DNA from: Candidatus Zixiibacteriota bacterium
Lineage (GTDB): Bacteria > Zixibacteria > MSB-5A5 > GN15 > FEB-12
Direction: 5' to 3'
Length of the DNA: 64,000 bases
Assembly (NCBI GenBank): GCA_035380245.1
Contig: DAOSXA010000001.1
Location: forward strand, 145,925 to 209,924
Shown in pieces: positions 26,142 through 42,355 of the stretch. Made by a program: the position numbers and the translations under genes. Under the pieces are notes generated by a model. The model did no database searches and was not told the DNA's origin. It saw only the letters and a program-made list of their open reading frames with translations. The first letter of the stretch is position 1, and each line of letters starts with the position of its first letter.

Positions 26142-26205
26142 GATTGACTCCTTTAGCGATAGCACTCCATCAATACGTTTTCTCGCAACATATGTACAAT
26201 GCTGG

Positions 26206-28089: not shown

Positions 28090-28161
28090 ATATGTAATGG
28101 TGTCGCCATCGAAAATGGTCTGAGTCCTGTTTCCCAGGGCGTTGTATGCATAATACCGAGT

Positions 28162-28471: not shown

Positions 28472-28677
28472 GGTGGGGCACCAAAAAGATGAAGAGGGAT
28501 TCCCGCTTTCGCGGAAAGACGCTTTCGGAGGTATGCTGCTGCAGGGGCAGACGAGACATCTGTCGCCCACGAAATCCCACCCGAGGGGTGGGGCACCTTT
28601 GTCCGAAACTTTCAGATTTATCCCACCCGTGGACGGGTGGGCCATTCGGCTGCAATTCCCACCCGTGGACGGATGGG
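28307..28677. repeat. Cluster of five REP-like hairpins (CCCACCC-N3-4-GGGTGGG)
   Basis: Hairpins at 28307-28325, 28462-28478, 28576-28593, 28622-28641 and 28658-28677, each preceded by an a/t-atc or attc motif. Confidence 0.75.
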
Positions 28678-28719
28678 CCACCCCTTAATACTCCCGCTAT
28701 AATCCTGCGCATAAAAAAG

Positions 28720-28809
28720 CGGAGAGGCAGGGATTCGAACCCTGGATAGAGCTATTAGCCCTATAACGGATTAGCAATCCGCCGCCTTCAGCCTCTCGGC
28801 CACCTCTCC
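28720..28809 (-). tRNA. tRNA-Ser (anticodon GCU)
   Basis: 90 nt. Acceptor GGAGAGG/CCTCTCC, anticodon loop TTGCTAA, long variable arm, T-arm CAGGGTTCGAATCCCTG, discriminator G. CCA is not encoded. Confidence 0.93.
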
Positions 28810-28887: not shown

Positions 28888-30327
28888 TTAACTGCGGTCG
28901 GACCGGCTCAGCTTGGCGGTTACCACGTGAGTCCCGTCCTGGGAAAAGATGACACCGTCCATTTCCTCTTCGATTTCCTTGACCAGGCAACCGACGTGGA
29001 TTTTTACCCCCGGATAGACTTTACCGACGGCAATCACGCGGGCATCGCGAAGAGCCAGGAGTTTTTCTTCGGTCTCACGCTTCTTCTTCTCCAGAGCCTC
29101 AAGAGCAACCGGGACATGTTTCCCGAACTGCTCCAGTTTGGCCAGCCCCTCCTCCTGCTGCGGAGTGAGTTTCTTGTCCAGTTGGAGCTTATAAAGGTCG
29201 TATAGCTTCTCTTTGACACGGGCGGCGTCGGTTTTCAGGCGAGCTATTTCGTGTGTGGCTTCATGGTACTGGCGCAACAGTTTCTCATCGTAAGCAACCG
29301 TCAGAACGGTCTGGGTACCGGCATCGGAGCCGATATCGGTAGCGCGAATTTCTTTGCCGGCGTTGATTTCACCCCCGACAATTTTACCCTTACGCCCCTT
29401 GACCATCACCCGCTCATGAGCGGTAACATGACAGTTGACCAGTTCTCCCCCGGATATTACATGCTCTCCGGCCGTAATCGTCTGCCCCTGGGCGTACTTA
29501 ATCGTAACATCGCCGTCAGCGTGCATAACCCCATCACCGCCGCCGTAAAAACCGCCTCGAACAAGGATGTTCCCCTTACAGAAGACTTTGGCATCCTCGA
29601 CATTGCCGCTCACCTCGAGATCCCCCCCTACTTTGACCTCAAAGCCGGTATGTATGTGCCCGGTAATACGCAGCGAACCGACACAGTCCAGATTGCCGAC
29701 GTTAAAATCGACATCTTTGACCTGCATGACATCCTTGACCGAGACACGCCCCTGTTTGAAGATAATGGCCCCGTCGCAACGCGCTCTCATTTCGAGCCCA
29801 CCTCCCACGATTTCTACATTCTCGCCGGGACTGAACGGGATGTTACGACCGCGCGGCGCCGAAATAGGGCGACCATCGACACCGGTGCCGGAGATACCAT
29901 CGGCGGGAAGCGTGCGCTTGACCAGCAGATCTCCCTTGTGGACGTTCTGAATATAACCCATGTCGCGATAATCGATGCGACCGTCGGGACCTTCCTGGGG
30001 CTGAAAACGATTTTCAGTCTGGAAAAAATACTCGAATTCAGTGTGCTTGCCCTGAACCATCGGGCTGCCCTTGGCCACCTCGATGCTTTGGCCGTAAGCC
30101 TGGCCGATAGCGGCTTCGACAATGGCATCTTCGTTCAAGCCATAGGTAACCCCGGCCAAACTGATCGCCTGGCGAATTTCCTCTTCGGTGACAGGCGGTT
30201 CTCCGGTAGTAGGCTGACTGATCGCAATTGTAGCAATCAGGCGATCCTTGGTGATATTCACCCGGACCCTTTTACGTCTTACGACGCTGTCCTTGTTTTG
30301 TATGTCGGGAGTCTCGGCCGGCGTCAT
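28888..30327 (-). CDS. FapA-family (DUF342) flagellar assembly protein
   Basis: Beta-helical repeats (VGGDLEVSGNVEDAKVFCKGNILVRGGF...GKIVGGEINAGKEIRATDIGSDAGTQTVLTV) and a C-terminal coiled coil. The ATG at 30327 is preceded by AGGAG. Confidence 0.75.
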   Translation of the reverse strand: MTPAETPDIQNKDSVVRRKRVRVNITKDRLIATIAISQPTTGEPPVTEEEIRQAISLAGVTYGLNEDAIVEAAIGQAYGQSIEVAKGSPMVQGKHTEFEYFFQTENRFQPQEGPDGRIDYRDMGYIQNVHKGDLLVKRTLPADGISGTGVDGRPISAPRGRNIPFSPGENVEIVGGGLEMRARCDGAIIFKQGRVSVKDVMQVKDVDFNVGNLDCVGSLRITGHIHTGFEVKVGGDLEVSGNVEDAKVFCKGNILVRGGFYGGGDGVMHADGDVTIKYAQGQTITAGEHVISGGELVNCHVTAHERVMVKGRKGKIVGGEINAGKEIRATDIGSDAGTQTVLTVAYDEKLLRQYHEATHEIARLKTDAARVKEKLYDLYKLQLDKKLTPQQEEGLAKLEQFGKHVPVALEALEKKKRETEEKLLALRDARVIAVGKVYPGVKIHVGCLVKEIEEEMDGVIFSQDGTHVVTAKLSRSDRS

Positions 30328-30337
30328 CGGGGCTCCT

Positions 30338-30745
30338 CTAGGTCGGTTCGTTGGAAGTCTGGTTCGAAGCGGACAGGATGCGCCAGTAAGCCCGCTCCAC
30401 AACCAGCGATATCTCGTAGCTCTTGAACGGCTTGGTCACATATTCATCAGCACCCAGAAGAAGAGCATCTTTTACGGTGTACGTGTCACCATAAGCGGTC
30501 ATGATAATGACACCGATTTCAGGGTGGTCTTTCTTGATGATGCTGAGCAGCTCGAAACCGTCCATGCGCGGCATCTTCATATCCGAGATAACGATATCGA
30601 CCTTATTGTTTTTAAGATACTCCAGAGCGGCAACGCCGTCCTCCGCCGTGTTGATCCGGTACCCCTCACGCGAGAGGATCTTCATCAGCAGGTTACGCAT
30701 CATCAATTCATCATCGACGATCAATATCGATATCGAACTCTTCAT
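30338..30745 (-). CDS. Stand-alone response regulator receiver (CheY-like)
   Basis: 135 aa. Conserved residues are present: ILIVDDE, IVISDMKMP, IIMTAY, VTKPF. Confidence 0.85.
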   Translation of the reverse strand: MKSSISILIVDDELMMRNLLMKILSREGYRINTAEDGVAALEYLKNNKVDIVISDMKMPRMDGFELLSIIKKDHPEIGVIIMTAYGDTYTVKDALLLGADEYVTKPFKSYEISLVVERAYWRILSASNQTSNEPT

Positions 30746-30798
30746 CTATCCGTCTCCTTAATCAAGCACAAGTGCTCGCTCAGATTCCGTCCCCAACC

Positions 30799-31311
30799 TC
30801 AGCGTTGCAACGCTGAAGTTACTTCGGAGATGAACGTCTCCATCATTACCGGTTTGTACATCACCCTGCAGGCGCCCATAATCCCGGCTTCGGTTACCAG
30901 TTTCTCGGTAGCGTTACCGGTAATAATCATGACCGGCACCTCGGGTGAGATATCCTTGATAGCCGAGAGGACATCCAATCCGGACATTTCCGGCATAATG
31001 AGGTCCAGAGTGATCAGATCGTATTGACTGCCGCGTACTTTGGCGATGGCATCCTGGCCGTCGCCGGCGAGGTCTATATCGAAGGCCTGAGTAAGTTCGC
31101 AGAAATCTTTGAAAACGTCCTGAACCCATTTTTCGTCATCGACGATCAACACCCGGAACGGTTTGCCCCTTTGCCTGACCAGTTGGGTCAGCACCTCGGT
31201 TTCGGGAGAACTGTTCAAACCTGTCTCCTGTTCTGTAAGTCTATCGATCCGGTGGTTGGCACCGGTATATTGCATCTTTCGGCCCCTTTTGGTGCGTCGC
31301 AACCTCGGCAA
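30799..31311 (-). CDS. Response regulator receiver with short N-terminal extension
   Basis: Conserved residues are present: VLIVDDE, LITLDLIMPEMSG, MIITGN, YKPV. The start is uncertain (31311 or 31275). Confidence 0.8.
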   Translation of the reverse strand: MPRLRRTKRGRKMQYTGANHRIDRLTEQETGLNSSPETEVLTQLVRQRGKPFRVLIVDDEKWVQDVFKDFCELTQAFDIDLAGDGQDAIAKVRGSQYDLITLDLIMPEMSGLDVLSAIKDISPEVPVMIITGNATEKLVTEAGIMGACRVMYKPVMMETFISEVTSALQR

Positions 31312-31448
31312 TTTCGCCCGAAGCGGTTTATTCCGATCCGGACGCTGGTACGGGCTGTCGCCAGGGCGCCGAAACGACGCCTTTCTGTTATTATCGTCAT
31401 CTCAATCTCATCCTAAACGGCCGGACCGGCATAATCTTAACCGTCCGA

Positions 31449-31808
31449 TTACACGGTCAGGTCGGTAGATTTGGACAATGTATCCATGATCGAGGAACAC
31501 TGATCCAAAATCGAATTCAGTTTCAGTTCGATTCGATCTCTGGAGACAGCTCCGGAGGGGACATCGTAAGCCATTGTTTCCAAATGCCTTGCAGCACCTA
31601 CCAGATGTGTGATCTCCTGTACCGCCTTGATCGTGCCGTTGACCAGACGAACGAAGTCCGGTTCCATTTTGCCCAGTTCTTTGGAATTGGGTTTGGCCTT
31701 GGCCAGGTATATAGCCAGGTTCAGAGCCAGGACTTTTACTTCTTCGCTGAGACGGTCCACCTTGTTGACGATGGTAATCTCTCTGCGGCGATTTGTTTTT
31801 GACTCCAT
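31449..31808 (-). CDS. Small helical protein with remote similarity to the MCP signalling hairpin tip
   Basis: 119 aa. VKVLALNLAIYLAKAKPNSKELGKMEPDFVRLVNGTIKAVQEITHLV aligns gaplessly by eye to the MCP tip ([46 protein letters not shown]). The EQGRGF turn is not conserved. Confidence 0.3.
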   Translation of the reverse strand: MESKTNRRREITIVNKVDRLSEEVKVLALNLAIYLAKAKPNSKELGKMEPDFVRLVNGTIKAVQEITHLVGAARHLETMAYDVPSGAVSRDRIELKLNSILDQCSSIMDTLSKSTDLTV

Positions 31809-31810
31809 AT

Positions 31811-32167
31811 CTATTCCAATAGCTTGGCGATACTTTCTTTTAGCTCGGACAGATCGGACGACTTGACAAGGTAATCATCAGCGAGCCAGGTTTGAAAATC
31901 CGCCTTATAGATACTGTAAGCGGAGTTAATCACGACCCGAGTATCGGGTAATTTTTTGCGGAGTTCCTGAAGCGCTTCGATTCCGGTCATCTCCGGCATC
32001 TCAATATCGAGGACGATCAGATCGAACGACTCGGGCGGTCCGGCCTGAAGCAGCTTCACCGCAGAATCCATTGTCTCGACCCGGTAGCCGCATTCCTCCA
32101 GTTCGGTCTGATAGAGCAACCGGATATGCGGATCGTCGTCAACTACCAGGATTCTCTTCTGAGTCAT
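31811..32167 (-). CDS. Stand-alone response regulator receiver
   Basis: The ATG at 32167 is preceded by GGAGGA. Conserved residues are present: ILVVDDD, IVLDIEMPEMTG, INSAY, VKS. Confidence 0.85.
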   Translation of the reverse strand: MTQKRILVVDDDPHIRLLYQTELEECGYRVETMDSAVKLLQAGPPESFDLIVLDIEMPEMTGIEALQELRKKLPDTRVVINSAYSIYKADFQTWLADDYLVKSSDLSELKESIAKLLE

Positions 32168-33920
32168 TTTTCCTCCTGTGAATCGGAATCTTGACGTAGA
32201 GCGACGGCAACGACTGCAGGTTGGTTTGCAAACCATAAGTACCGCCATGATAACGGATCGTTTCACCGGCAACCATGACGGTCAGTCGTTGTGAGGCCCC
32301 CTTCTGTGAGAATATCTGTGTCAGCAGTTTGTGCATCTTGTCGCGGTTTTCCTCGGGAGTGTGCACATCGATAGTCATGCAAGCCTGGCCATCGACAATT
32401 TCCGTGTGAACCACGGCATCTCCGGGTGGAATCAGCTCCTCGGCAACCAGCTTGAGGAGTTGATAGACGGCATGAGCCAATTGATCGCTGTTGCCAAACA
32501 CTTCAATTCCCGGCTGTAGTTCCAGATTGATATCATCAAAAGCGCCACGGCACCGACCAGCGAGCGTACGATAGCTGCGCTCGATCAGGGCGGAGAAATC
32601 AACGACTTCGTTCCGGGCACGGCTGGCTTTGGAGAAATCCAACACATGAGCAAGAACGGTTTCGGCGCGACGAACCTCACCGGCAATGATATTCAGGTAT
32701 TCCCGATGATGATCGGCCAGGTCGGACTTGAGCAACAGGTTGGCGAAGCCACCGACGATGGTGAGCGGATTACGTAGTTCATGCGCTATCGCCGAAGTGA
32801 GTTCGCCGATCACCGACATTTTCTCGAACTGGATGATCTGATCCTGGGTCTCGGCCAGACGGCGATTGATACGCTCCATCTCCTGAGCACGTTGAAGCTG
32901 TATCTCATATAGTTCAGCGCGTTCCATCGCAACGGCAGCCTGATTCGATAATACCTGCAACAGGCGAACATCTTCATCGGTGATCGTACGCCCGGTGAAA
33001 AGGTTGTCGGCGACCAGTAAACCCTGGAGGTTTCCCTTGCTGACCATCGGGACCAGAGCCAACTCGCGCGAGCCAAGACGTAGTATAAGCGACTGAGTGA
33101 TTTCATCGACCGGGTCGTTCGGATCGAGAATAAACCATTGACCAAGATGACAGGCATTCTCAATATCCGACGGTTGGTTGAAATCGATGCTGTAATCTTT
33201 GATGAGCCCGGTAATTCCGCCTTCGACACCGACCTCGTCATGGATGCTGGCGGTCAGCAGATCGGACAAGGTCAGTCTATTCGAGTCCATATCGTGCCAG
33301 ATGCGTCCGGCCTCTTCGGCCGAGGTCGGCCCCACCGCCAGATGCCCCTGGAGCAATCGTTGCTTTTCATCGTACAGGAACAGGAAAGCCCGGTTGAAAC
33401 CGAGTCCCTGAGAAGCCGTAGCACCGGTCAGGATGGCCATGAGAATATGATCCAGGTCATGCGTGGATGAAAGCGCCGTGGCGACTTCGGCCAGGATTTG
33501 CAGTTCATCCTGAAGCTCGGCATAGGCCGCTTGATTTTCCAGTTTGCGAGTCTGGCGGACGAGAGCGACGATGCGGCGATCGTCGTTATATCCAAAAGCC
33601 TGACAGCAGAAATCCAACTCGCAGAATTGACCTCTCCGATTGGTACAATGCACTTCGGAAAGACAGAAGGGGCGATCGCCGTTCAGGACTTCATTGAAAT
33701 GTTCCTGGACATCTGAGTCGAATACATTGTCGATTCGTTCCAGAGAATAATCGATTCCCGGAGCTTGTTCATCGATACCCAGAAGTCGTGCGGCGGTTTC
33801 GTTGGTATGCACTATATAGCGATCGCGGTCGACCACGAACTGACCGATCTCGAACCGACTGAGCAGTTCGTCGCCGACGGTTGTCGGGATATTTGTGACT
33901 TGCTCTAACAGTCTGTCCAT
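32139..33920 (-). CDS. PAS-GAF-HisKA sensor protein with degenerate HATPase_c domain (putative pseudokinase)
   Basis: The H-box AHELRNPL is present. The C-terminal domain keeps the fold outline (TIRYHGGTYGL), but the N box is replaced by QLLKLVAEEL, G1 DxGxG by DVHTPEE, and G2 GxGLGL by ASQRLT. The start at 33920 lies 2 nt after the upstream stop. Confidence 0.7.
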   Translation of the reverse strand: MDRLLEQVTNIPTTVGDELLSRFEIGQFVVDRDRYIVHTNETAARLLGIDEQAPGIDYSLERIDNVFDSDVQEHFNEVLNGDRPFCLSEVHCTNRRGQFCELDFCCQAFGYNDDRRIVALVRQTRKLENQAAYAELQDELQILAEVATALSSTHDLDHILMAILTGATASQGLGFNRAFLFLYDEKQRLLQGHLAVGPTSAEEAGRIWHDMDSNRLTLSDLLTASIHDEVGVEGGITGLIKDYSIDFNQPSDIENACHLGQWFILDPNDPVDEITQSLILRLGSRELALVPMVSKGNLQGLLVADNLFTGRTITDEDVRLLQVLSNQAAVAMERAELYEIQLQRAQEMERINRRLAETQDQIIQFEKMSVIGELTSAIAHELRNPLTIVGGFANLLLKSDLADHHREYLNIIAGEVRRAETVLAHVLDFSKASRARNEVVDFSALIERSYRTLAGRCRGAFDDINLELQPGIEVFGNSDQLAHAVYQLLKLVAEELIPPGDAVVHTEIVDGQACMTIDVHTPEENRDKMHKLLTQIFSQKGASQRLTVMVAGETIRYHGGTYGLQTNLQSLPSLYVKIPIHRRKNDSEENPGS

Positions 33921-33922
33921 CG

Positions 33923-34768
33923 TTAATCCTTGTCTTCCGTCTCGACGCATCGATCCATCGCTTCGACCAGACTGCATATCCCGCTCAGGCGGCGATTTGC
34001 TTTGGAAACGCGAAGGGCGGCAGCTTCGATACGTCTCATACGCGACAGTTCCTTTTGACTGACCGCAGATTTCTCCATTACCAGGCATTGGATATTGCCC
34101 ACGATTACGGCCAGGGGGTTGTTAATTTCATGATTGACACTGGCGGCCAGACGCGCAGCTTCTCGCAGCCGCACCATGAGGTTGGCGCCCGATAAAACAT
34201 TCCGTTCACCAGTGGAATGCTGCTGCACTTCAGCCCGTGTGCGATTGAGTTCTTCGTCCAGTTGCAGCATCTGTAACGAGACGCCGAGGGGCCCGGCGAC
34301 CATCTCGGCCATCCGTAATTTCTCGTCGTCGTAGATATCCGCGGCAAAACAACCGAGATTGACCACTCCGACCAACTCCTCACCGTACAGCAACGGAATT
34401 GACAAAATGCTGCGATAATGACCGTCCGGTTCGGATAGAAAATCTTTCTTACGTAACGGAATCCGAGTGGGGCGACGGTTGGCTGCCACCCAGCCTTCGA
34501 GGCCGAGTCCGGATCCCAGTGACAGATAACTCAGGAATTGTACACGGCGTCCGACGCTGACCAATTCTTCAAGACGACGGCTCACACGGGACACCAGATG
34601 CACCGTTGCGCCATCGAACGGGATCAAATCCTTGAGTCTCTTCAACAGCGAGGCGCTTTTATCCGAAAGGGAGCCCTTAATATCGATCGGGCTGCACAAT
34701 CGAAGAAGCTTATTGAGACGATCCGCATCGTTTGATACGGTCGGGATGTCACTAGCGGTCGTGGTCAC
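33923..34768 (-). CDS. GAF plus HisKA/DHp-only protein (no ATPase domain)
   Basis: 281 aa. GAF-like region, then the H-box SVNHEINNPLAVIVGN. The ORF ends about 60 aa later, with no catalytic domain. Confidence 0.7.
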   Translation of the reverse strand: MTTTASDIPTVSNDADRLNKLLRLCSPIDIKGSLSDKSASLLKRLKDLIPFDGATVHLVSRVSRRLEELVSVGRRVQFLSYLSLGSGLGLEGWVAANRRPTRIPLRKKDFLSEPDGHYRSILSIPLLYGEELVGVVNLGCFAADIYDDEKLRMAEMVAGPLGVSLQMLQLDEELNRTRAEVQQHSTGERNVLSGANLMVRLREAARLAASVNHEINNPLAVIVGNIQCLVMEKSAVSQKELSRMRRIEAAALRVSKANRRLSGICSLVEAMDRCVETEDKD

Positions 34769-35397
34769 CCTTCCTCTCCTACAGTAGCCTGCTCCAGGTG
34801 CTCAGTTATCCGGCGACACAGTTTTTGTTCCAGCTCATGGAAGAAGATCTGTTTATCCGGTGCCGAGACATGAATTTCAGGATCATTGATGTTGTCATCC
34901 ATGGACATTTGCATGATCCGTTTGGCTTCTTTACTGATTTTGAAAGGCTCGGCGGTAATGACTCTCCCCCAGGACAAATCGATGAGGCGCAACTCACCTT
35001 CGATCACTCCGACAGTCGAATATTTGTGGAAAACCAGCGGGATATGCCAGCTTTTACGCCGTTCGAGCCGTTCGGAGTTAACATCGACCAGCAGCAAATA
35101 ACGCCCGCCCACTTCGCGTCCCCAGTTGACCAGCGAGTCGGTATCAAAGCGATTGGTCGGGAAAGGCGGAAGGTTATCCTGTCCGGGTTCTGCCAGCACC
35201 GGTCGCAGTTGTTCGTTGCGAGAGATATCCGCAGCCAGAATTTGTTCGATTTGCGGTTGTGACCAGGCGGACTCGGCCTGATCGACACGTATTATGATTT
35301 TACGTGCGAACGAATCAGCCAGGGCAACTCCGTTCAATACCATGATCAGTAATGCCAGAGCTATGCCGATCTTGACCAGTCGGGCAATCATAATCAC
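34765..35397 (-). CDS. Secreted or membrane-anchored hypothetical protein
   Basis: 210 aa with N-terminal hydrophobic segment IGIALALLIMVLNGVALA. No family recognised. Overlaps both neighbours by 4 nt. Confidence 0.4.
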   Translation of the reverse strand: MIMIARLVKIGIALALLIMVLNGVALADSFARKIIIRVDQAESAWSQPQIEQILAADISRNEQLRPVLAEPGQDNLPPFPTNRFDTDSLVNWGREVGGRYLLLVDVNSERLERRKSWHIPLVFHKYSTVGVIEGELRLIDLSWGRVITAEPFKISKEAKRIMQMSMDDNINDPEIHVSAPDKQIFFHELEQKLCRRITEHLEQATVGEEG

Positions 35398-35876
35398 ACC
35401 TGTTCCCGAGCTACGAACCGGTTGACGACCTCACGAACGGTCTTGTCGAAATGGTCAAACTGCTCGTCCAGAAGATCCATCTCGGAAGCCGACAGAATGT
35501 CATTCAAATTCTCGCGTGTAACGAACTGAACACCGGCAAGATTGCCGCTCTCATCCGTATCACAACGTTTGACCAGACCGAGAATACCGTTGAGGGTGCC
35601 GGTGTCACGAAGCAGGAAACGCATGGCGACGATGTCGCCTTCATTGACCGGCTGCTCCAGATCGAGCAGTACGCCGCCGGCGGAAATGTTCAGGATATTT
35701 CCCTGAATGCGATACTCATCTCCCTGCGGCCAGTAGTTTCCGAAAATGTCCTTAATGCGACTCAGTGAAGCGGGAGAGGTTATCTCGATTCTTACGAACT
35801 GACGTTTTTCGGTCGTATGCTCCTGAGCAGTCGCGACCTTGTTATCGTTGGCATCCTGCGTGGGTGATTTTCCCAT
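35394..35876 (-). CDS. PilZ-domain c-di-GMP receptor
   Basis: RxxxR (KRQFVRIE) and N/DxSxxG (NISAGGVLL) motifs are intact. Confidence 0.8.
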   Translation of the reverse strand: MGKSPTQDANDNKVATAQEHTTEKRQFVRIEITSPASLSRIKDIFGNYWPQGDEYRIQGNILNISAGGVLLDLEQPVNEGDIVAMRFLLRDTGTLNGILGLVKRCDTDESGNLAGVQFVTRENLNDILSASEMDLLDEQFDHFDKTVREVVNRFVAREQV

Positions 35877-35897
35877 GATTAACTCCTGTATCGATGG

Positions 35898-36659
35898 CTA
35901 CAATCTATTTTTCTTTTTCCAGGCAATCAGCGCCTGGTTCATCTCGGCCCGCTTAGGGGCGGTAAACTCAAACACGGCCGGGGGTAGAAGCTTGAGAATG
36001 TTCTCAGGTACTTCGACCCGCGCCTGCATGTCGGTGAGGAATTCCACACCGGTATAGAAATGCCCGGTTTCGGGCTGTATGCTGTGTCTGACACATCCGA
36101 TCATGAGAACCGGGAATTCGAATTGATCGAGGGCCAGATTAACGAATAACTTGGTGCCTTTTTCCAGGCGACTGGAGAGATCAAGTAAAAGACCGCCGCC
36201 GGAGAGATTGACGGATTCGGTTTCCATCCAGCGCATATTCTTGAGTTTCTTGGGATGAAAAGCCGGTCCGGCCATAACGGCCATGCGCACCGGGAACGAC
36301 ATGCGAACCCGAATGAAACGTCGGCGCATGAGCGGAAGAGCTTTATCGTCCAGAAAAATACGACAACGACCGCCGGAGGTGCGCTTAAGCAGGGCAGCAA
36401 CAGTGATTTCTTCTCCCTTGTATTGGAAACAGAGGGCAATTTGTTGATTGCTGACGAGCGTATCGATGCTTCTCTCGGCGCCGCCGCGATCCAGGGTGAG
36501 AGAATTTTCGCGAGCTTCAATCACTCGTGTGGCCAGCGGTCTTCCGGGGAATTGTTCCGAATGTACCGTAACGGAACGACCAACCATTGTCGAGAGATCT
36601 AACAAGGCAGTGTTGAACATGACATCATCATGCTGATCTCTGACGGCCTGGGTGACCAT
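35898..36659 (-). CDS. YcgR-like (PilZN + PilZ) protein
   Basis: 253 aa with RRRFIRVRM and NLSGGGLLL motifs and an N-terminal beta-barrel-like domain. Confidence 0.72.
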   Translation of the reverse strand: MVTQAVRDQHDDVMFNTALLDLSTMVGRSVTVHSEQFPGRPLATRVIEARENSLTLDRGGAERSIDTLVSNQQIALCFQYKGEEITVAALLKRTSGGRCRIFLDDKALPLMRRRFIRVRMSFPVRMAVMAGPAFHPKKLKNMRWMETESVNLSGGGLLLDLSSRLEKGTKLFVNLALDQFEFPVLMIGCVRHSIQPETGHFYTGVEFLTDMQARVEVPENILKLLPPAVFEFTAPKRAEMNQALIAWKKKNRL

Positions 36660-36661
36660 AT

Positions 36662-37420
36662 CTACAGCAATCCTTTCTGGCGCAGTTCTACTTGTTTATG
36701 GAAGATGAAACTGACCAATCGATTCTGAGCCACGCGGCCAAAATGCCTGACCGATGTCGGTAATTGCTCCAGTTCGTGACTCTCAAAGAATTTTCTGAGA
36801 TTGTCGGAGGTAATGAACTCAACGCCAACCATGCGCTGGCGTTCATCCAGAGCTTCACGGCGGCAGACAGCAACCACCGTTTCGGGAAGCTCGATACCCG
36901 GGAAAAAAGCAAATTTCAGCAACAGACGATCATCCACACGCGGTTCATCATTGATATGGATCAGGGCGCCGCCGCCGCTGAGATCAACGGTGGTAGAATC
37001 ATGCCAGGTGAGTGACTCCTCGAACGATTCGTAATCCATAACCGGTTTAATGAGTGCCCAGGACAGCTTCTCCGTGACCTCGATACGAGCGAACTGGCGG
37101 CGTTGTACGCGCTTAACGTTGCTCGGCGGAGTGAGGATATAAGCTTCACCGTTGGCGCGAATGAGTTTCTTGACAACCGACTGACATTGATAAACGGCAT
37201 CTTCACGAGTTATCAGAATCGAAACCGCGGCGTTGCTGCGGAGGAGGGTATTTCCTCGCACATACTCCGGCGCGTCAACCAGGATACCGGAGTTGACGAA
37301 ATCCTCGACGCGGGCGGTATAAATGCCCGCCTCACTACCCTCACCGATAACGATTTCGATCCGTTCCCAGATTTTAAGCGGTTTTGAAAGTCTGGGCAGC
37401 GGTAGTTCCGCAACAGCCAT
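36662..37420 (-). CDS. YcgR-like (PilZN + PilZ) protein, paralog
   Basis: 252 aa with RRQFARIEV and DLSGGGALI motifs. Confidence 0.72.
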   Translation of the reverse strand: MAVAELPLPRLSKPLKIWERIEIVIGEGSEAGIYTARVEDFVNSGILVDAPEYVRGNTLLRSNAAVSILITREDAVYQCQSVVKKLIRANGEAYILTPPSNVKRVQRRQFARIEVTEKLSWALIKPVMDYESFEESLTWHDSTTVDLSGGGALIHINDEPRVDDRLLLKFAFFPGIELPETVVAVCRREALDERQRMVGVEFITSDNLRKFFESHELEQLPTSVRHFGRVAQNRLVSFIFHKQVELRQKGLL

Positions 37421-37431
37421 GTTATCCTATC

Positions 37432-38616
37432 CTAAGCCGTTTTAAGTGCTTCCATGTTGGCCCGACCCTGCTCTATTGCCAGTTCGAGAATCTTACGAGC
37501 AAGCGCGGTTCGGGAGCGGTCGTTCCGATTGCGATAAATGAAATCCTGGCCGTACTTGATGGTGCTGTTGAAGTACTGACGAGCACCGTCGTAGTCCCCC
37601 ACGCGACGTGAAAGTTCCGCGATCAAGTACGAAGCCTGTAGCTGCTGATAACCGGGCGAGATATCGCGGCCATCGGAGAAAGCAGCCTGATAATAACTGA
37701 CGGCCTTTTCCAAAGCGGTACGTTCGTTGATAGTCACACCGTCCCAGGTCAGGCGGACTTCCTTGAGATAATCCGTAAAGGAATTGCGCCCGGCAAAGCC
37801 CACGCCGGTGACTCCATCCTGTTCGTCCAGCACCGTCCCCTTGTATTCATTGAGAGCCTGCCCCAGTTGATTCAACTGTGCTTCCATATCACCGAATGCC
37901 TGGCGGCAACCGTTGACACCGGACGCGATCGACTCCTGGAACGGTACCATCTGAGCTTTAATTTCCGAGGGTATCTCGGCATTATCGAACTGCGCCTGCC
38001 AGTGCCGCTCGAAAGCTCGCATCTCTTTGGCGAACGATTCCAGAGCGGAATCCATACCGGCGAAGCGGTTGTCAATGTCAGAGGTCAGATTACCGAGAGC
38101 ATTGGTAGCAGGATTACCGAGACGGTTCATCGCACGGAACACCCAGCCAATGCGAAGATAGAAACGACCGAGGTCGAGGTTCGACGGGTGATCGGCAAGC
38201 AGTTCATCGTAAACAGCCAAATGCAGTTTCAGGATGGCTGACTCGTTGGGAAAACGTTGGGTGTCGATCGCCTCACCCATCAGCTTCAGAACCGAACCAG
38301 CCTGTGCCAGTTGATCGAGGTGCTGAGGTTTGATGCTCTTCAAGCGGTACGTGATAAAATTGGTATCTTTCTTCCACTCCTTGAAGCTGTTGTTGAACTC
38401 GCGAGTGTAGAAGCAGTTACTGCACGTAGCGGTGAAATAGAGCAGTGGATTGTGGTTCTGATAGCGTTTGAAGCGCCATTCGATGTCGGTTGGGCAGAAA
38501 TCGGTATCTCTCCCCTGCTCGGTATAAGCCCCGACCCGAACCGTCTGTAGTTCGTTGATCGTTTTGCAGATCGGGCATTCGATCCGCGAGATGAAAAATG
38601 GGCTGTCTGTTGCCAT
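37432..38616 (-). CDS. DUF2225-like zinc-ribbon/TPR protein
   Basis: 394 aa. N-terminal CPICKT...NPLLYFTATCSNCFYT split zinc-ribbon pattern, with a TPR-like C-terminus (YYQAAF..., ARQYFNSTIKYG). Confidence 0.6.
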   Translation of the reverse strand: MATDSPFFISRIECPICKTINELQTVRVGAYTEQGRDTDFCPTDIEWRFKRYQNHNPLLYFTATCSNCFYTREFNNSFKEWKKDTNFITYRLKSIKPQHLDQLAQAGSVLKLMGEAIDTQRFPNESAILKLHLAVYDELLADHPSNLDLGRFYLRIGWVFRAMNRLGNPATNALGNLTSDIDNRFAGMDSALESFAKEMRAFERHWQAQFDNAEIPSEIKAQMVPFQESIASGVNGCRQAFGDMEAQLNQLGQALNEYKGTVLDEQDGVTGVGFAGRNSFTDYLKEVRLTWDGVTINERTALEKAVSYYQAAFSDGRDISPGYQQLQASYLIAELSRRVGDYDGARQYFNSTIKYGQDFIYRNRNDRSRTALARKILELAIEQGRANMEALKTA

Positions 38617-38635
38617 GTTTATCTCCAGAGAATAA

Positions 38636-39049
38636 TTAATTAGCCTTTAAAGTGAGCAGTTGCAGCTCCGTCTCTGAGATTGGGAGCACGCGCTGAATTT
38701 TCTCAGCGGAAGCACCGGCCTTAAGCATCTCCCGGGCGATACGATGGATATCGTTACGGTCGGTGCGGGCCATACGCGTTGTCGGAACAACGGCAGGCCT
38801 GGTCGGTGTCGGCGCCGTTTCGGGAGCTTTCGGATTCGAGAGATTCACGAAACTCCCGGTCTGCTCGGTCGGTTTCGGCGGCATCACACCAGGTGCAGCA
38901 GCGGCCAAAGTCGGCGATGCCGCAGCTTCAGCAGTTTCGGTGCGACGGTTGCTAAAAGCGCTGTAAACGATTAACGACAGCGCTCCGGCCGCCAGATAGC
39001 CCGCGATGTTAAGGGCCATGTCCAGTATGATGTTGCTTGAAAGTTCCAT
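38636..39049 (-). CDS. Membrane-anchored hypothetical protein with C-terminal HTH-like segment
   Basis: 137 aa. N-terminal TM segment, Pro/Ala-rich linker, and C-terminal IHRIAREMLKAGASAEKIQRVLPISETELQLL. Resembles small proteins found after fliA in some flagellar loci, but this is uncertain. Confidence 0.4.
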   Translation of the reverse strand: MELSSNIILDMALNIAGYLAAGALSLIVYSAFSNRRTETAEAAASPTLAAAAPGVMPPKPTEQTGSFVNLSNPKAPETAPTPTRPAVVPTTRMARTDRNDIHRIAREMLKAGASAEKIQRVLPISETELQLLTLKAN

Positions 39050-39068
39050 TTTCAGCTTCCTGTCTTGT

Positions 39069-39386
39069 TTATGCTTCCAGATCTATGCGGTCACCCGCCT
39101 GGGGAGCCGGCTCTTCCGATGTCCGGTCATCCGTTTCATTTTCAATCGTCTCTTCGTTCGGTTCTTCCTGTGGCTCGTCCGGTTGTGCTTCCGTGTTCTC
39201 CTGATCGGTGGCTTCTTCGCTTATGATCAGTTCATCCTCGCGTCGTTTCTTCTTTTTGAGTTCTTCCTTCAACTCCTTCAAGAAGCGCCGCTCGTTCTCA
39301 TCCCGCTTGGAGCGCACCAACGGGTTGACTTTCTCGTCGGGGGGCGTTCCGAACAACGGTTCGGTTCGTTCAATTTCCTGTGCCAT
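39069..39386 (-). CDS. Highly charged/acidic hypothetical protein
   Basis: 105 aa, K/E-rich then D/E-rich, immediately downstream of fliA. No FlgM-like C-terminus recognised. Confidence 0.4.
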   Translation of the reverse strand: MAQEIERTEPLFGTPPDEKVNPLVRSKRDENERRFLKELKEELKKKKRREDELIISEEATDQENTEAQPDEPQEEPNEETIENETDDRTSEEPAPQAGDRIDLEA

Positions 39387-39419: not shown

Positions 39420-40292
39420 TCAACCGGTAAGGGCAAATCTCTCTTTCACCATGCCGCGCAGTTTGGCGACAGCCCTGGTGTGAATCTGCGATACGCGTGA
39501 TTCGGAGATGTGCATCACCTCACCGATCTCCTTCAGGGTTAATTCTTCGAAATAGTACAAAGCGATAACCAGCTTCTCCTGGTCGGTCAGGCGGTCAATG
39601 GCCACCACCAGGAAAGAGCGCAGTTCGCCTTTTTCGATATCGCTCAGGATATTCCCCACCGAGCCGTCGACAATCGTTTCGATTCGGGGGACCTGGCGGT
39701 TGTCATCCTCACGGTAGACAACTTCGTCGAGCGAGAGGACATTAGTTCCGTGGACATCATCCATAGCCAGGTGAAGCTCCTGCACCGAAATGTTCATGCG
39801 GTGCGCGATTTCTGCATTTTGCGGCTTACGACCGAGTTCGTTTTCGAGACCGGTGTAGGCGCGATCGATTTCGCGCGACTTGGCACGGGTCGAGCGCGGC
39901 ACCCAGTCCAGAGCACGCAGTTCATCAAGAATGGCTCCGCGGATACGCGGTACGGCGTACGTTTCGAATTTCACACCACGAGCGGAGTCATAATTTCCAA
40001 ACGCCTCGATCAACCCGATGACGCCGGTGTTAACCAGGTCCGATAATTCCACCGACCGGGGAAAACCCATAGCCATGCGCGAGGCAACATTGCGAACCAG
40101 CGGCAGGTATTTTTCGAGTAGTTGCTGGCGCATTTCCTCGGAACGGCATTTCTGATAGCGGGACCAATCCCGTTCAGTGACTTCCCACTTGCGAGATTTC
40201 CTGGCCCTGGCGGTCACAGCCGTTTGAGCCATCTGGGTCATATCGGCATCAGCCGGGTGTTTTCTGGTCGTCGATTTTTGCATCGTAGCCAT
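39420..40292 (-). CDS. fliA: Flagellar sigma factor FliA/WhiG (sigma-28)
   Basis: 290 aa with regions 2-4 (LVNTGVIGLIEAFGNYD; TLKEIGEVMHISESRVSQIHTRAVAKLR). Located after flhG. Confidence 0.9.
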   Translation of the reverse strand: MATMQKSTTRKHPADADMTQMAQTAVTARARKSRKWEVTERDWSRYQKCRSEEMRQQLLEKYLPLVRNVASRMAMGFPRSVELSDLVNTGVIGLIEAFGNYDSARGVKFETYAVPRIRGAILDELRALDWVPRSTRAKSREIDRAYTGLENELGRKPQNAEIAHRMNISVQELHLAMDDVHGTNVLSLDEVVYREDDNRQVPRIETIVDGSVGNILSDIEKGELRSFLVVAIDRLTDQEKLVIALYYFEELTLKEIGEVMHISESRVSQIHTRAVAKLRGMVKERFALTG

Positions 40293-40299
40293 TTGATTG

Positions 40300-41160
40300 C
40301 TATTCCCTTGTATCGGCCTTTATCGTTAAGCCATTGATTCTTTTTCTGTTTGAAAGCCGCGTCCCGGTCGGAGTTATCCCGAAATCGGTCAGCAGCCGGG
40401 CGGCGAGTTCATCGAACGCATATAGCGCATCGCTGGGCTGATCCAGCCCTGCCAGGGTGGTCTGACCGGCTACGCTCCGGCGTACTGATTCATCCTCCGG
40501 CAAAAAGCCCACGGTTTGCGGGGAAACGCCGAGGAACCGCTCGGAAAGCGCTGAGAACTTGCGGATGATATATTCAGCCTCTTCGACCCCTTCGGTCCGA
40601 TTGACCAACAGGCGGCAGTCAAGGCGGGGATTGCTGCGTTTGAGAAACTTGAACAGACCGTAACAATCGCTGATAGAGGAAAGCTCCGGTACCAGCAGCA
40701 ACAGGTTCAAATCTGAAGTATGGGCGGCCATAATGGCGGTTTGAGTAACACCGGAAGAATGGTCGACCAGGATGAAATCGTAATCAACAGCCTGTTTGAG
40801 CAGGTTGCGTATCAGGCGACGGGAAGCGGTTTCATCTTCAGGATCCAGATTTTCACTGTTGCGGAATCCTCCCAATAAGTCCCAACCCGGCTTGATTCGG
40901 TATACCGCTTCTTTAAGGCTCAGGCTTCGATCGGCGAACTCGCCCAAACCGAAATCGCAGGTTGCCTTGGCGAGAACATGCAGATTGCCGCTGTAAAGGT
41001 CACCGTCGACCATCAGGACGCGGAGCCCCCGAGCAGCCAGCCGGTCAGCCAGATTGAACGTTACAACAGTCTTGCCTACGCCGTTCTTACCGGACAGAAT
41101 GGAAATCACCACGGCAGCACGGCCATGTTCCGGGGCGCGGGTGAAAGTCTGCTTAAACAA
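40300..41160 (-). CDS. flhG: MinD/ParA-family ATPase FlhG (FleN/YlxH)
   Basis: 286 aa. Walker A is ILSGKNGVGKT (KNG instead of the usual KGG). Also VDGDL and FILVD. Located between flhF and fliA. Confidence 0.8.
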   Translation of the reverse strand: MFKQTFTRAPEHGRAAVVISILSGKNGVGKTVVTFNLADRLAARGLRVLMVDGDLYSGNLHVLAKATCDFGLGEFADRSLSLKEAVYRIKPGWDLLGGFRNSENLDPEDETASRRLIRNLLKQAVDYDFILVDHSSGVTQTAIMAAHTSDLNLLLLVPELSSISDCYGLFKFLKRSNPRLDCRLLVNRTEGVEEAEYIIRKFSALSERFLGVSPQTVGFLPEDESVRRSVAGQTTLAGLDQPSDALYAFDELAARLLTDFGITPTGTRLSNRKRINGLTIKADTRE

Positions 41161-42355
41161 GGAACGCCTCCACCTGCAACAGGTTACGAATCATCCGATC
41201 CGGATCGGGCGTCTTGATCTCGCCGATACCGGAAGGAGATTCGGTAATGAAACCGATCGGACATCCGGAGGCTTCGGCCGCAGCAATAGCGGTACCGCAG
41301 AGATCGGTCAGATCAAGCATCGTAACAACGACATTGGTAGGCTCAAAAACGGCGGCATTACGAGCCAGATGCGGGATATCACTCGACCGGGTAAGGGCGG
41401 AATAAACCGCCAGCACGTGCGTCGGATCGAGCGAGCGAGCCTGTTCCACCAAACGTTCCAGTCGATCAGGATCGCCCGGCAACGCAGGAGAATCGATCAG
41501 GGTGATGCTGTCCGGATTGAGATAGAGGTCTTTATCCTGAGACTGGACATCGACTACATCGGCGCCGAGGATACGACCGTATCCGGCGATCTCGTCGAAG
41601 GCAGCCATTTTAACCGTATCGAGGGTAATCAAACTGACCGGCAGCTTCTGCAGCATGATCAATTGAGCGGCCAGTTTGGCTACGACGCTGGACTTGCCGG
41701 CGCCGGCAGGCCCGACGAACAGAACGCGATCACCGGGCGCAAACGGCATTGACGGAGCCATCAGGCAGGCGGTCTCTTCTACCAGTATGGAGCGCGTCAC
41801 CGCCGTCAGGTCATCGCCGATTTTAGCTGAGCGATTGGCCTTTTCAATCAAGCGCTGAATAAATGGTTTCGGGAAATCGGCGTCGCGCAGGGTTTGTTCA
41901 ATGACATAAAAACCATCACGACGCTCGCGTTCGATACGCTGTTCGACCGATGTTTTATCAATCCCGGCAATCCGATTGTTTGTCTTGTTCTCGCGGGGCG
42001 TTTCAGCATATTCATCTTCCGGTACAACGTCGGTATCTTCTTCATCCATCACGGCCGTGGCCGTCGCGGCGGACCCAGCTTGCTCAGCCAGTTCCAAAGC
42101 TGCCGCCAGGGCATCAGGACGGTTATCATCGAATACGCTGTCGATCACCGTCCCCACCGGTGAGGTCAAAAGCAGAGTTGACTGCTCGACTGTGGGATTT
42201 TCCAGGCAGGCGGTTATTTCAACCGACAGACGACCGCCGCTGCCGGTAATTTGCCGTGTCTTCAGCACGATCGCCTCACCGCCCATTTGTTCGCGCACCC
42301 GCTTGAGAGCGGCGCTCGAAGAACGTTCTACGAAAGACTTAATGATCATCGTCAA
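41153..42355 (-). CDS. flhF: Flagellar biosynthesis SRP-type GTPase FlhF (G2-G4 motifs atypical)
   Basis: 400 aa with the N-terminal FlhF signature IKSFVERSSSAALKRVREQMGGEAIVL and P-loop GPAGAGKS. G2 is DTVK, G3 is DSPA and G4 is TMLD. Confidence 0.8.
   Translation of the reverse strand: MTMIIKSFVERSSSAALKRVREQMGGEAIVLKTRQITGSGGRLSVEITACLENPTVEQSTLLLTSPVGTVIDSVFDDNRPDALAAALELAEQAGSAATATAVMDEEDTDVVPEDEYAETPRENKTNNRIAGIDKTSVEQRIERERRDGFYVIEQTLRDADFPKPFIQRLIEKANRSAKIGDDLTAVTRSILVEETACLMAPSMPFAPGDRVLFVGPAGAGKSSVVAKLAAQLIMLQKLPVSLITLDTVKMAAFDEIAGYGRILGADVVDVQSQDKDLYLNPDSITLIDSPALPGDPDRLERLVEQARSLDPTHVLAVYSALTRSSDIPHLARNAAVFEPTNVVVTMLDLTDLCGTAIAAAEASGCPIGFITESPSGIGEIKTPDPDRMIRNLLQVEAFLV

Follow-up and report, generated by a model that had tools for sequence, protein, structure and literature searches.

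How might a flagellar motor be controlled by a regulatory gene cluster that encodes receivers and phospho-accepting histidines but no domain able to bind ATP? The question is raised by a 64,000-nucleotide (nt) stretch of the genome of Candidatus Zixiibacteriota bacterium (hereafter the window), in which fourteen genes, g01 to g14, follow flhF, flhG and fliA at the end of a flagellar export operon. We find that these genes form a genuine conserved unit in related bacteria, and we tentatively interpret the unit as a regulatory extension of the export operon in which cyclic di-GMP (c-di-GMP) receptors stand beside a His-Asp module that would be fed by a kinase encoded elsewhere.

Gene order and conservation of the block

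All fourteen genes lie on the minus strand, from the open reading frame (ORF) of an acidic protein at 39386 down to that of FapA, which ends at 28888. A preliminary description of this DNA, made from its letters, had given exactly this ORF span and its position after flhF, flhG and fliA, three genes that Pfam identifies; it counted thirteen genes, but its own list adds up to fourteen, and an independent gene caller working on an identical metagenomic contig also returned fourteen. With the refined starts of the gene caller (33920 for g09, 593 residues; 32167 for g10, 118 residues; 31275 for g12, 158 residues; 30327 for g14, 479 residues), the gaps from fliA on are 33, 19, 19, 11, 2, 21, −4, −4, 2, −29, 2, 137, 53 and 10 nt. 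The spacing first reported, mostly 40 nt or less and at most 137 nt, thus holds. The only sizeable gap precedes g12 (137 nt, or 173 nt with the ATG start), and all others are between −29 and 53 nt. The mechanically defined g09 ORF (32139-34088, minus strand) reaches 56 codons into g08; the ATG at 33920 sits 2 nt past the g08 stop and agrees with the orthologs, and the mechanical ORFs of g10, g12 and g14 are likewise over-extended.

Upstream of the block, Pfam recognizes an MgtE_N-like gene followed by fliK, flgD, flgE, fliL, fliM, fliN, fliO, fliP, fliQ, fliR, flhB, flhA, flhF, flhG and fliA. The domain assignments originally made by reading translations were also borne out by Pfam profiles (DUF2225, three PilZ, GAF-HisKA, PAS-GAF-HisKA, three Response_reg and FapA); NCBIfam gave no name to any of the ten block proteins tested. 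Essentially all ORFs of at least 110 residues in the window, plus the block, were scanned with Pfam, and no CheA, CheW, CheB, CheR or methyl-accepting chemotaxis protein (MCP) domain and no GGDEF, EAL or HD-GYP domain was found among them, as had been noted of cheA, cheW, cheB, cheR, full-length MCPs, cyclases and phosphodiesterases. A che operon, which would combine cheA and cheW with cheR, cheB and MCP genes, is therefore not present among these ORFs. The Rfam scan of the window returned a tRNA only and no c-di-GMP riboswitch, and scans for sigma-70 promoters and terminators stayed at chance level.

Related loci were collected in two ways. A one-genome-per-species scan with g08 yielded 80 loci, whose ORFs were then searched by tblastn and iterated HMMs, and a metagenome scan with a narrow g11 profile yielded 76 further loci; some metagenome contigs are near-duplicates, so that the counts below somewhat overstate independence. 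About 100 related loci from genomes and metagenomes, mostly labelled Zixibacteria, share the gene order, at protein identities of 30-70%; this order was seen in genome loci L005-L016, L044 and L052 and in the 76 metagenome loci. Twelve full-length loci, labelled Zixibacteria or "Ignavibacteriales", hold the block in the same order with FlhA proteins that are 58-74% identical. The shared order is fliA, acidic protein, membrane protein, DUF2225, up to three PilZ proteins, periplasmic protein, GAF-DHp protein, an optional pair of pseudokinase and receiver, mini protein, two receivers and, usually, FapA. Non-conservation of the gene order had been named beforehand as a ground for refutation, and that refutation fails.

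To follow single genes, we used the 41 loci in which fliA and the mini gene (g11) lie on one strand. Between these two genes, DUF2225 and at least one PilZ gene occurred in all 41 loci, three PilZ genes in 34, a g07 homolog in 38, a g08-sized DHp gene in 31 and a g09 of about 600 residues in 17. The mini gene was followed by two receiver genes in 62 of 63 loci, and FapA followed the second receiver in 29 of the 39 loci long enough to judge. The full version with g09, g10 and FapA recurs, for example in L091, L094, L096-L098, L100, L103 and L108. The invariant core of the block is thus DUF2225, PilZ, the mini gene and the two receiver genes, and g09 with g10, as well as FapA, are optional parts. 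The block had been said to stand in place of a chemotaxis block, which is a comparison with Bacillus- or spirochaete-type operons and is not supported here: a che block is missing at this position from every relative examined, and the flanks of the roughly 100 related loci contained no che gene except cheW in two.

Two DHp proteins without ATP-binding boxes

Both g08 and g09 match Pfam HisKA and carry the H-box histidine of a DHp domain, within VNHEINNPL in g08 and IAHELRNPL in g09, and in neither did we find a class I kinase catalytic domain with its N, G1 and G2 boxes. The g08 protein ends 68 residues after the histidine (His213), which leaves room for two DHp helices and no more. From the DHp region to its C-terminus, g09 aligns with the DHp-CA structure of KinB (3d36, 3.3e-16); its DHp region (residues 360-454) matches ThkA (3a0r_A, 7e-14 by phmmer), and weaker matches are to RetS DHp-CA structures (6dk7 and 6dk8, 2e-5 to 4e-5). 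The asparagine of the N box, DxGxG of G1 and GxGxG of G2 are replaced in g09 and in all 20 distinct orthologs, and there is no HATPase_c match, which agrees with the degenerate ATP-binding boxes noted earlier. A kinase encoded beside a g08 ortholog in Neomarinimicrobiota, aligned alongside g09, has all three boxes and matches Pfam HATPase_c. The g09 orthologs share GNxDQLxHAxYQ, SQRLxxLVAGETxxYHGG and PxLYxELP in the catalytic-like domain. Because the boxes are gone and the domain is nevertheless well conserved in 20 orthologs, g09 is, on this alignment, a conserved pseudokinase and not a decaying gene. With g08 lacking a catalytic domain and g09 lacking the three boxes, the two proteins are predicted to be unable to generate their own phosphoryl groups, so kinase input must come from elsewhere, as the preliminary description had expected.

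The identity of the H box among loci L004-L083 was discounted, since these loci had been found with the peptide pattern VNHEINNP and their shared H box reflects how they were ascertained. An unbiased set of 23 g08 relatives came from a profile, built from 19 sequences, that covered the GAF region only (a single GAF query gave three). These proteins are 236-306 residues long, all have a GAF domain (with or without a HisKA match) and none has HATPase_c. The histidine is present in 23 of 23, in the form NH[E/Q/N][I/V/L]N[N/D]P, with Gln or Asn after it in four. The H-E-x-x-N motif is kept in g09 and in nearly all g08 relatives. This motif has been linked to the phosphatase activity of HisKA kinases, and the isolated DHp domain of EnvZ dephosphorylates OmpR.

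Comparable proteins are ChpT of Caulobacter and Spo0B of Bacillus, dimeric DHp proteins with a phospho-accepting histidine and a kinase-like C-terminal domain unable to bind ATP, which shuttle phosphate between receivers. ChpT is a phosphotransferase that adopts the fold of class I kinases without binding ATP (PMC3433190). At the level of sequence g09 shares this design, with an intact H box and a catalytic-like domain without the N, G1 and G2 boxes. Different from ChpT and Spo0B are the PAS and GAF domains of g09, which are sensors, and its H box of the classical HisKA type; g08, for its part, lacks a C-terminal domain altogether. No match to ChpT or Spo0B was found by sequence. The sequences of g08 and g09 are compatible with roles as phosphotransferase, phosphatase or RetS-like inhibitor and do not separate them.

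In other phyla of the FCB group, g08 is the only gene of the block that is recognizably kept, always a few kilobases downstream of fliA. In a Neomarinimicrobiota/Fidelibacterota locus (L055) the order is fliA, three small ORFs (one FlhB-C-like), a PAS-HisKA-HATPase_c kinase, a GAF-HisKA protein of 270 residues and flgF-flgG-flgA-flgH-flgI. In a Gemmatimonadales-labelled metagenome-assembled genome (MAG; L022) fliA is followed by HDOD, TPR, a 271-residue ORF and GAF-HisKA, and Glassbacteria-labelled loci are alike. In Latescibacterota (L017), fliA, a 120-residue ORF, a FliK-like gene, an FlhB-C-like gene and GAF-HisKA precede the first genes of a series that agrees in length with the flgF-flgI genes of L055.

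Several observations accompany these loci. The GAF-HisKA-only protein, of 265-300 residues, occurs downstream of fliA in MAGs of Neomarinimicrobiota/Fidelibacterota, Gemmatimonadales, Glassbacteria, Latescibacterota and Delongbacteria (L055:8721-10801, L022:9962-10855, L017:9962-10798 and many of L017-L069), and looks like an unrecognized, widely kept flagellar-cluster gene. At the kinase position of a Delongbacteria-labelled locus (L049:7323-8537) and of a MAG labelled Acetofilamentum sp. (L036:2153-3391) there is a GAF-PAS-DHp protein without a catalytic domain; it contains VNHEINNPLT and ends soon after the DHp domain, giving two DHp-only proteins per cluster, between which L049 has a TPR plus DUF6115-like protein. 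The FlhB-C-like gene that precedes the GAF-DHp gene in L017 (9639-9941) encodes a stand-alone protein of 100 residues corresponding to the C-terminal part of FlhB (Bac_export_2 positions 262-335, E=3e-19), and a 104-residue ORF without a Pfam match lies at the same position in L055 (8381-8695). A second GAF-DHp-only paralog of about 260 residues appears, by lengths and N-terminal sequences, to adjoin a nuoH-nuoN-like NADH dehydrogenase cluster in Zixibacteria and related MAGs (e.g., L073:9485-10270), so that this architecture is not confined to flagellar loci. This second g08-like group (L070, L073-L083) had been considered as a che-operon marker and was dropped, because its neighbours, to judge by the same features, appear to be NADH dehydrogenase genes.

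Three receivers and the FliM switch

ThkA and TrrA of Thermotoga maritima (3a0r) are the closest solved relatives of g09 and g10. The g10 receiver matches TrrA (3a0r_B) at 1.1e-30 over 114 residues and resembles it over its whole length, including an AYSxYxxDxxxWxADxYxVKS stretch. The likeness of g09 to ThkA is limited to the DHp region, and unlike ThkA it has lost the ATP boxes and carries an added GAF domain. In the 12 genome loci compared, g09 and g10 were present or absent together. To judge by these data, the two behave as a cognate pair whose kinase partner has lost ATP binding.

The other two receivers follow the mini gene. The nearest relatives of g12 are the NtrC1 and CheY receivers; for g13 the best match among solved structures is Spo0F (1.4e-24), and NtrC receivers and CheY (~1e-16) come after it. 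All 28 g10 orthologs have the phospho-accepting Asp, the acidic pair and the Lys; in g12 these residues are kept in 70-71 of 71; and in g13 the Asp is kept in 60 of 61 and both the Lys and a Tyr/Phe switch residue in 61 of 61. The acidic pocket, Lys and aromatic switch of a CheY-type receiver are thus found in g10 and g13, and g12 has Val at the switch position. Such conservation indicates that all three receivers are functional and in need of a phosphodonor.

The N-terminus of FliM in the window carries LSQDEIDALL, the canonical peptide that binds phosphorylated CheY. The motor is therefore likely to be built to respond to a phosphorylated CheY-type protein, and FliM is the likely target of a phosphorylated receiver. 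No cheY lies beside fliM and fliN in the window, unlike in Bacillus-type operons.

A mini protein weakly resembling a chemoreceptor tip

The mini protein g11 belongs to a small family. An exhaustive phmmer search of 1.84 billion proteins gave 41 representative clusters, nearly all of about 50-165 residues; no ordinary full-length MCP was among them, and the one long match (P0031) has 2640 residues with 10 matched stretches. In every context examined, g11 was found only inside the block, between its receivers. The family consensus is VDxLxEEVKxLALNLAIYLAKAK...LEPxFIRLVNGTVKVVQE, and the part LALNLAIYLAKAK...F(I/V)RLVN parallels LALNAAIEAARAG...FAVVA of the MCP signalling tip. The family profile matches the tip of TM1143 of T. 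maritima (2ch7, E=1.6e-3) as well as Aer and Tsr. The likeness to an MCP tip that had been read from the sequence is weak: g11 itself scores only 15.7 bits against the Pfam MCPsignal cut-off of 34.6 (E=0.014); nine of 28 family members match MCPsignal below threshold, at best with E=8.4e-5. Unlike an MCP, g11 has only 119 residues and no membrane, HAMP, sensor or methylation regions, the long hairpin with methylation helices is missing, and its hairpin turn is longer. AlphaFold2 predicts three short helices (pLDDT 72), the chain first turning at residue 42, and this fold has no specific structural match.

In two loci cheW lies directly downstream of g11. One of them (L084:5961-6791) matches Pfam CheW at 1.3e-32 and has a low-complexity N-terminal extension of about 140 residues; the other (L014:13281-13760) matches the L084 domain at 8.9e-24 by phmmer and a CheW structure (2qdl) at 1.1e-15. 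This neighbourhood, in 2 of about 100 loci, suggests that g11 may be tied to CheW or to receptor arrays. HPt and CheZ/CheX-type phosphatase were also considered as identities of g11 and were rejected, as inspection found no conserved His, DxxxQ or ExxN motif in the family.

PilZ proteins and accessory genes

Between fliA and g08 lie seven genes, of which three encode PilZ proteins. The g04 protein has a PilZN domain followed by a PilZ domain with RQFAR and DLSGGG, and RxxxR and D/NxSxxG are kept in 13 of 13 loci; a sequence search of g04 against the Protein Data Bank gave no match. This is the architecture of YcgR, MotI (DgrA) and FlgZ, with intact motifs and among flagellar genes, and g04 is YcgR-like on these grounds. 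YcgR is reported to act on MotA and FliG, and flgZ to be a flagellar gene (PMC10140304, PMC3913639). What differs from YcgR, MotI and FlgZ is that three dissimilar PilZ proteins stand in tandem, two of them with other N- or C-terminal parts and one motif-less in some lineages: the c-di-GMP motifs of g05 are intact in the window and lost in 4 of 13 orthologs.

The remaining genes are of mixed character, and the block is not the pure "signalling tail" of the preliminary description: g07 is a periplasmic protein, g02 weakly resembles DUF2802, and g03 belongs to a family that includes a motility factor of Leptospira. Orthologs of g01 share an N-terminal KVxP..S(E/D)RD and a C-terminal HIDLKA; its identification as the anti-sigma factor FlgM was rejected, there being neither a family match nor any resemblance. 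The g02 protein crosses the membrane once, by a helix near its N-terminus, and its C-terminal part contains the conserved segment RRNRAEVIxxAREML...LPITEGELALLK; the protein belongs to no Pfam family, and three of ten members of its own family match DUF2802 below threshold (best E=0.006). In g03 a Cys-rich N-terminal stretch is seen by eye and weak, sub-threshold TPR matches lie in the C-terminal part. One DUF2225 member, LEPBIa0550, affects motility in Leptospira, and the family is otherwise uncharacterized (PMC12236494).

For g07, which has no Pfam family, AlphaFold2 predicts a hydrophobic N-terminal helix and an alpha/beta domain (mean pLDDT 88.3). Foldseek matched the model to CT253, CsgG, FlgT (3w1e), the LPHT ring (8z5n), LptE, PelC and HpaA with E values from 5e-7 to 1e-4 and TM scores of about 0.5. 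The modelled fold is thus typical of periplasmic ring or outer-membrane accessory proteins. The matches to FlgT and the LPHT ring (E ~1e-5) recall the H-ring and the ring proteins of LptE, CsgG and PelC type, but compared with FlgT-type proteins g07 is a single domain of about 180 residues with about 10% sequence identity. A role in a flagellar ring is only a suggestion of the model, for the fold is common to many unrelated periplasmic lipoproteins. We found 41 homologs of g07, and those with a named source were labelled Zixibacteria or plain "bacterium".

A candidate late promoter and FapA

Upstream of g12 lies a motif that resembles a sigma-28 promoter; the reference pattern was TAAA-N15-GCCGATAA-like. 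In 81 loci the strict pattern occurred 10 times in 290-nt windows around the end of the mini gene and 13 times in the remaining 831 kb, an enrichment of about 27-fold. A −10-like CGATA[AT] precedes g12 in 68 of 81 loci, compared with 20% of random windows of the same size, and in the genome loci that contain g09 the motif lies across the 3′ end of g11, always at the same place. These observations suggest that a FliA-type promoter may drive g12, g13 and fapA. If the promoter is real, the three would be late flagellar genes.

The last gene, g14, has both the FapA_N domain and the FapA beta-solenoid with scores (133.3 and 211.3 bits) far above the cut-offs of 27 and 31, the two Pfam domains of FapA of Vibrio vulnificus. 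The Vibrio protein is reportedly needed for formation of the polar flagellum. In contrast to it, g14 is predicted to be co-transcribed with two receivers behind a sigma-28-like promoter and is absent from about one quarter of the related blocks.

Proposed mechanism and alternatives

What could such a block do? Starting from the observed gene content, conservation, catalytic-site status and motifs, we infer every interaction and the direction of phosphoryl flow in the scheme that follows. We favour, tentatively, the reading that the block extends the flagellar export operon by conserved accessory and regulatory genes, in which c-di-GMP input is combined with a His-Asp module that has no kinase of its own and would depend on one encoded outside the block; this may well be right, but we do not hold it with confidence. 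In a first layer, made up of the DUF2802-like membrane protein, the DUF2225 protein, the three PilZ proteins and the periplasmic protein of FlgT/LptE fold, the PilZ proteins (one YcgR-like) would serve as brakes or clutches of the motor on binding c-di-GMP that is produced elsewhere. In a second layer, g08 and g09, unable to use ATP, would accept, relay or strip the phosphoryl groups of g10, g12 and g13, working either as ChpT and Spo0B do or as the EnvZ DHp phosphatase does, and their GAF and PAS domains would gate the phosphoryl flow. A kinase whose gene lies elsewhere would supply the phosphoryl groups. CheA is the most plausible one in view of the CheY-binding motif on FliM; a different histidine kinase, or acetyl phosphate, could also serve. 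In a third layer, the late sub-operon of g12, g13 and fapA, expressed from its putative sigma-28-type promoter, would pass the output to the FliM switch and/or, through FapA, to flagellar assembly or placement. Finally, g11 would tether the His-Asp layer to CheW or to chemoreceptor arrays.

A number of observations weigh against this scheme. The g13 receiver is at least as close to Spo0F and NtrC receivers as to CheY. Several lineages appear to lack g08 while the mini gene and both receiver genes stay (e.g., L116, L150 and L156), so the receivers are not strictly dependent on g08; outside the clade, g08 orthologs have no adjacent receiver gene, so the partner of g08 may be neither g12 nor g13. 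The MCP similarity of g11 stays below threshold, its model retrieved only generic helical bundles with Foldseek and nothing at E ≤0.001, and cheW adjoins g11 in no more than 2 of about 100 loci and not in the window. As for transcription, the full sigma-28 pattern occurs three times in the window alone against 3.15 expected by chance, just 10 of 81 loci have the strict motif, and co-transcription of the block with fliA is predicted from spacing only.

The strongest competing view is that the block gathers flagellar accessory genes that are independent of one another: brakes, assembly factors, a periplasmic protein associated with a ring and a few orphan two-component proteins. They would share an operon for timing only and form no single pathway. 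The mixed locations of the products would fit, with g07 periplasmic, g02 in the membrane and the rest cytoplasmic, as would the putative internal promoter that splits the block and the separate gain and loss of its modules (g09 with g10 in 17/41 loci, FapA in 29/39, g08 absent in some, the motifs of the second PilZ protein lost in 4/13). Other phyla, moreover, keep g08 alone by fliA. Yet the series of mini gene and two receivers (62/63) and the pairing of DUF2225 with PilZ (41/41) are strict despite deep divergence (FlhA 58-74%), the mini gene is seen only in this block, and ATPase-less DHp proteins and output-less receivers make little sense alone. We regard this view as possible, though on the unlikely side. 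The optional parts, together with what appears to be a promoter of their own for the last three genes, also call for some revision of the "phosphorelay plus c-di-GMP control unit" of the preliminary description, for which the conserved order and the intact PilZ motifs speak.

It is improbable, in our judgement, that g08 and g09 are instead RetS-like modulators that heterodimerize with a complete kinase, or siphon phosphate from it, for flagellar expression or another output, the receivers not being their main partners. The idea draws on the g08 ortholog of Neomarinimicrobiota, which directly follows a complete PAS-HisKA-HATPase_c kinase with no receiver nearby (L055), on the match of g09 to RetS DHp-CA (6dk7, 6dk8), and on the Gln or Asn after the His in 4 of 23 g08 relatives, where the catalytic chemistry may be relaxed. 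No complete kinase, however, is encoded in the block, in the window or in the close relatives, the H-box regions of the two proteins differ (VNHEINNPLAVIVG in g08, IAHELRNPLTIVGG in g09), and the TrrA-like receiver beside g09 recalls an ordinary cognate pair.

Could the block instead be a self-contained, CheA-independent motor pathway, in which the mini protein, the DHp proteins and the three receivers replace MCP, CheW, CheA and CheY and small molecules donate the phosphate? Bar cheW in two of them, no che gene turned up among the scanned ORFs of the 64 kb or beside the roughly 100 related blocks, FliM keeps its CheY-binding motif and the receivers are catalytically intact. Che operons, though, commonly lie far from flagellar operons, and the occasional cheW beside g11 points to a link with conventional arrays, not to independence. 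We also know of no pathway in which signalling at the speed of chemotaxis runs on acetyl phosphate alone, and we consider this explanation very improbable. That g08 and g09 are decaying pseudogene remnants of an ordinary two-component system is scarcely credible: the ATP-binding boxes are lost, but the ORFs are intact, the pseudo-catalytic motifs are conserved in 20 distinct orthologs and the g08 family is found in several phyla.

Beyond the reading of the block as an extension fed by an outside kinase, one may imagine a new class of pathway for control of the motor and of assembly, in which phosphoryl groups pass among three receivers by way of a tip-like mini protein and two ATP-blind DHp proteins, one gated by GAF and one by PAS-GAF, with no kinase dedicated to the task, three c-di-GMP receptors help to integrate the metabolic and second-messenger state at the flagellum, and the GAF-DHp-only protein is an ancestral and hitherto overlooked flagellar regulator of the entire FCB group. 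Taken as a whole, this is unlikely.

Features of the block and of the rest of the window

The features discussed above are collected in Table 1. The rest of the window contains housekeeping genes, an extracytoplasmic function sigma factor, CotH/VTC genes and an RHS-like fragment.

Table 1 Positions and assignments of the block genes, of the motifs and of the neighbouring genes in the window
Feature	Position	Strand	Evidence
g01, acidic 105-residue protein	39069..39386	−	no Pfam or NCBIfam family
g02, single-pass membrane protein, DUF2802-like	38636..39049	−	ortholog alignment
g03, DUF2225 protein	37432..38616	−	Pfam PF09986, 77.7 bits (cut-off 21)
g04, YcgR-like PilZN+PilZ protein	36662..37420	−	PilZNR 32.5 bits, PilZ 41.6 bits
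g05, second PilZ protein	35898..36659	−	Pfam PilZ; N-terminal domain without family
g06, short third PilZ protein	35394..35876	−	Pfam PilZ; motifs kept in 13/13 loci
g07, predicted exported/periplasmic, TolB-N/LptE/CsgG/FlgT-like fold	34765..35397	−	AlphaFold2 and Foldseek; start of gene caller 35391
g08, GAF and DHp (HisKA), no catalytic domain	33923..34768	−	Pfam GAF_2/GAF/HisKA only
g09, predicted PAS-GAF-DHp pseudokinase, catalytic-like domain without ATP boxes	32139..33920	−	Pfam PAS/GAF/HisKA, no HATPase_c
g10, single-domain receiver, TrrA-like, putative g09 partner	31811..32167	−	Response_reg 81 bits
g11, 119-residue mini protein, predicted three-helix, remotely chemoreceptor-tip-like	31449..31808	−	profile and AlphaFold2
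Sigma-28-type promoter-like motif, TTAG-N15-ACGATAA	31391..31416	−	upstream of g12, 80 nt before its ORF
g12, single-domain receiver, 40-residue N-terminal extension	30799..31275	−	Response_reg 84.8 bits; alternative TTG start 31311
g13, single-domain receiver, Spo0F/CheY-like	30338..30745	−	Response_reg 112.6 bits
g14, FapA (DUF342) family, last gene of the block	28888..30327	−	FapA_N 133.3 bits, FapA beta-solenoid 211.3 bits
FliM N-terminal CheY-binding motif AKILSQDEIDALL (context)	49851..49889	−	translation; FliM by Pfam
flhF (context, upstream of the block)	41153..42355	−	SRP54 GTPase domain, Pfam E=9e-19; position conserved in all related loci
flhG, MinD/ParA-type ATPase (context)	40300..41160	−	Pfam matches CbiA/AAA_31/ParA
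fliA, sigma-28 family (context)	39420..40292	−	Sigma70 r2, r3 and r4 domains; 62-77% identity in related loci
tRNA-Ser(GCU), block boundary	28719..28809	−	ARAGORN; Rfam tRNA 58.2 bits

Between the RHS-like ORF and the tRNA gene, positions 28146-28700 hold two 151-nt direct repeats (28162-28312 and 28317-28467, 92% identical) and five copies of a palindromic unit of about 28 nt, TCCCACCCG.GG.CGGGTGGG; these repeats could be a REP-like (repetitive extragenic palindromic) element or an integration scar beside the tRNA gene. The RHS-like ORF itself (26206-28089, minus strand, 627 residues, no Pfam match) reads as the C-terminal core of an RHS/YD-repeat protein with a toxin tip (…RYYDSDLGRFTSIDK…NNPVSMVDQDGNW…) and may be an N-terminally truncated cassette. 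Downstream of it, a 318-residue ORF without a family (25269-26225, minus strand) could be the immunity gene. Positions 12803-19200 (minus strand) encode a CotH kinase protein of 1249 residues with five lamin-tail domains, followed by DUF4956 and VTC-domain proteins; these are unrelated to the block.

Relation to known operons and significance

The placement of regulators in flagellar operons has clear precedents. At the end of the export operon of Bacillus subtilis (flhF-flhG-cheB-cheA-cheW-cheC-cheD-sigD-swrB) and in the gammaproteobacterial flhF-flhG-fliA-cheY...DUF2802 clusters there are likewise flhF, flhG, a sigma-28 gene and regulators, among them a small single-pass membrane protein; g02 weakly matches DUF2802. 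Unlike the B. subtilis operon, the block has no cheA, cheW, cheB, cheC or cheD, and its signalling genes stand after fliA and belong to other families. As far as we know, the known regulators inside flagellar operons contain a working kinase (CheA, FlrB or FlgS). Each domain family of the block is already known, and so are regulators embedded in flagellar operons. What appears to be new is the conserved combination without an ATP-binding kinase, the stand-alone family of tip-like mini proteins, and the recurrent GAF-DHp-only protein by fliA in several phyla of the FCB group. The preliminary description did not recognize a described system here; likewise, the literature that we searched on Zixibacteria flagella and on phosphotransferases and PilZ proteins with flagella held no description of this arrangement.

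The block is probably an undescribed unit for control of the motor and of flagellar assembly that depends on a kinase encoded elsewhere. It is strongly conserved, its receivers and phospho-His sites are intact, and it combines the lack of an ATP-binding domain with a triple c-di-GMP input and a stand-alone tip-like protein. To our knowledge, Zixibacteria are a candidate phylum without cultured members, and the block offers clonable targets for biochemistry from such a phylum. If the proposal is true, relatives of histidine kinases would have been recruited repeatedly as phosphotransferases or phosphatases in the control of motility, and a function would be found for several families now called hypothetical: the GAF-DHp protein by fliA, the mini protein, DUF2225 and the DUF2802-like protein.

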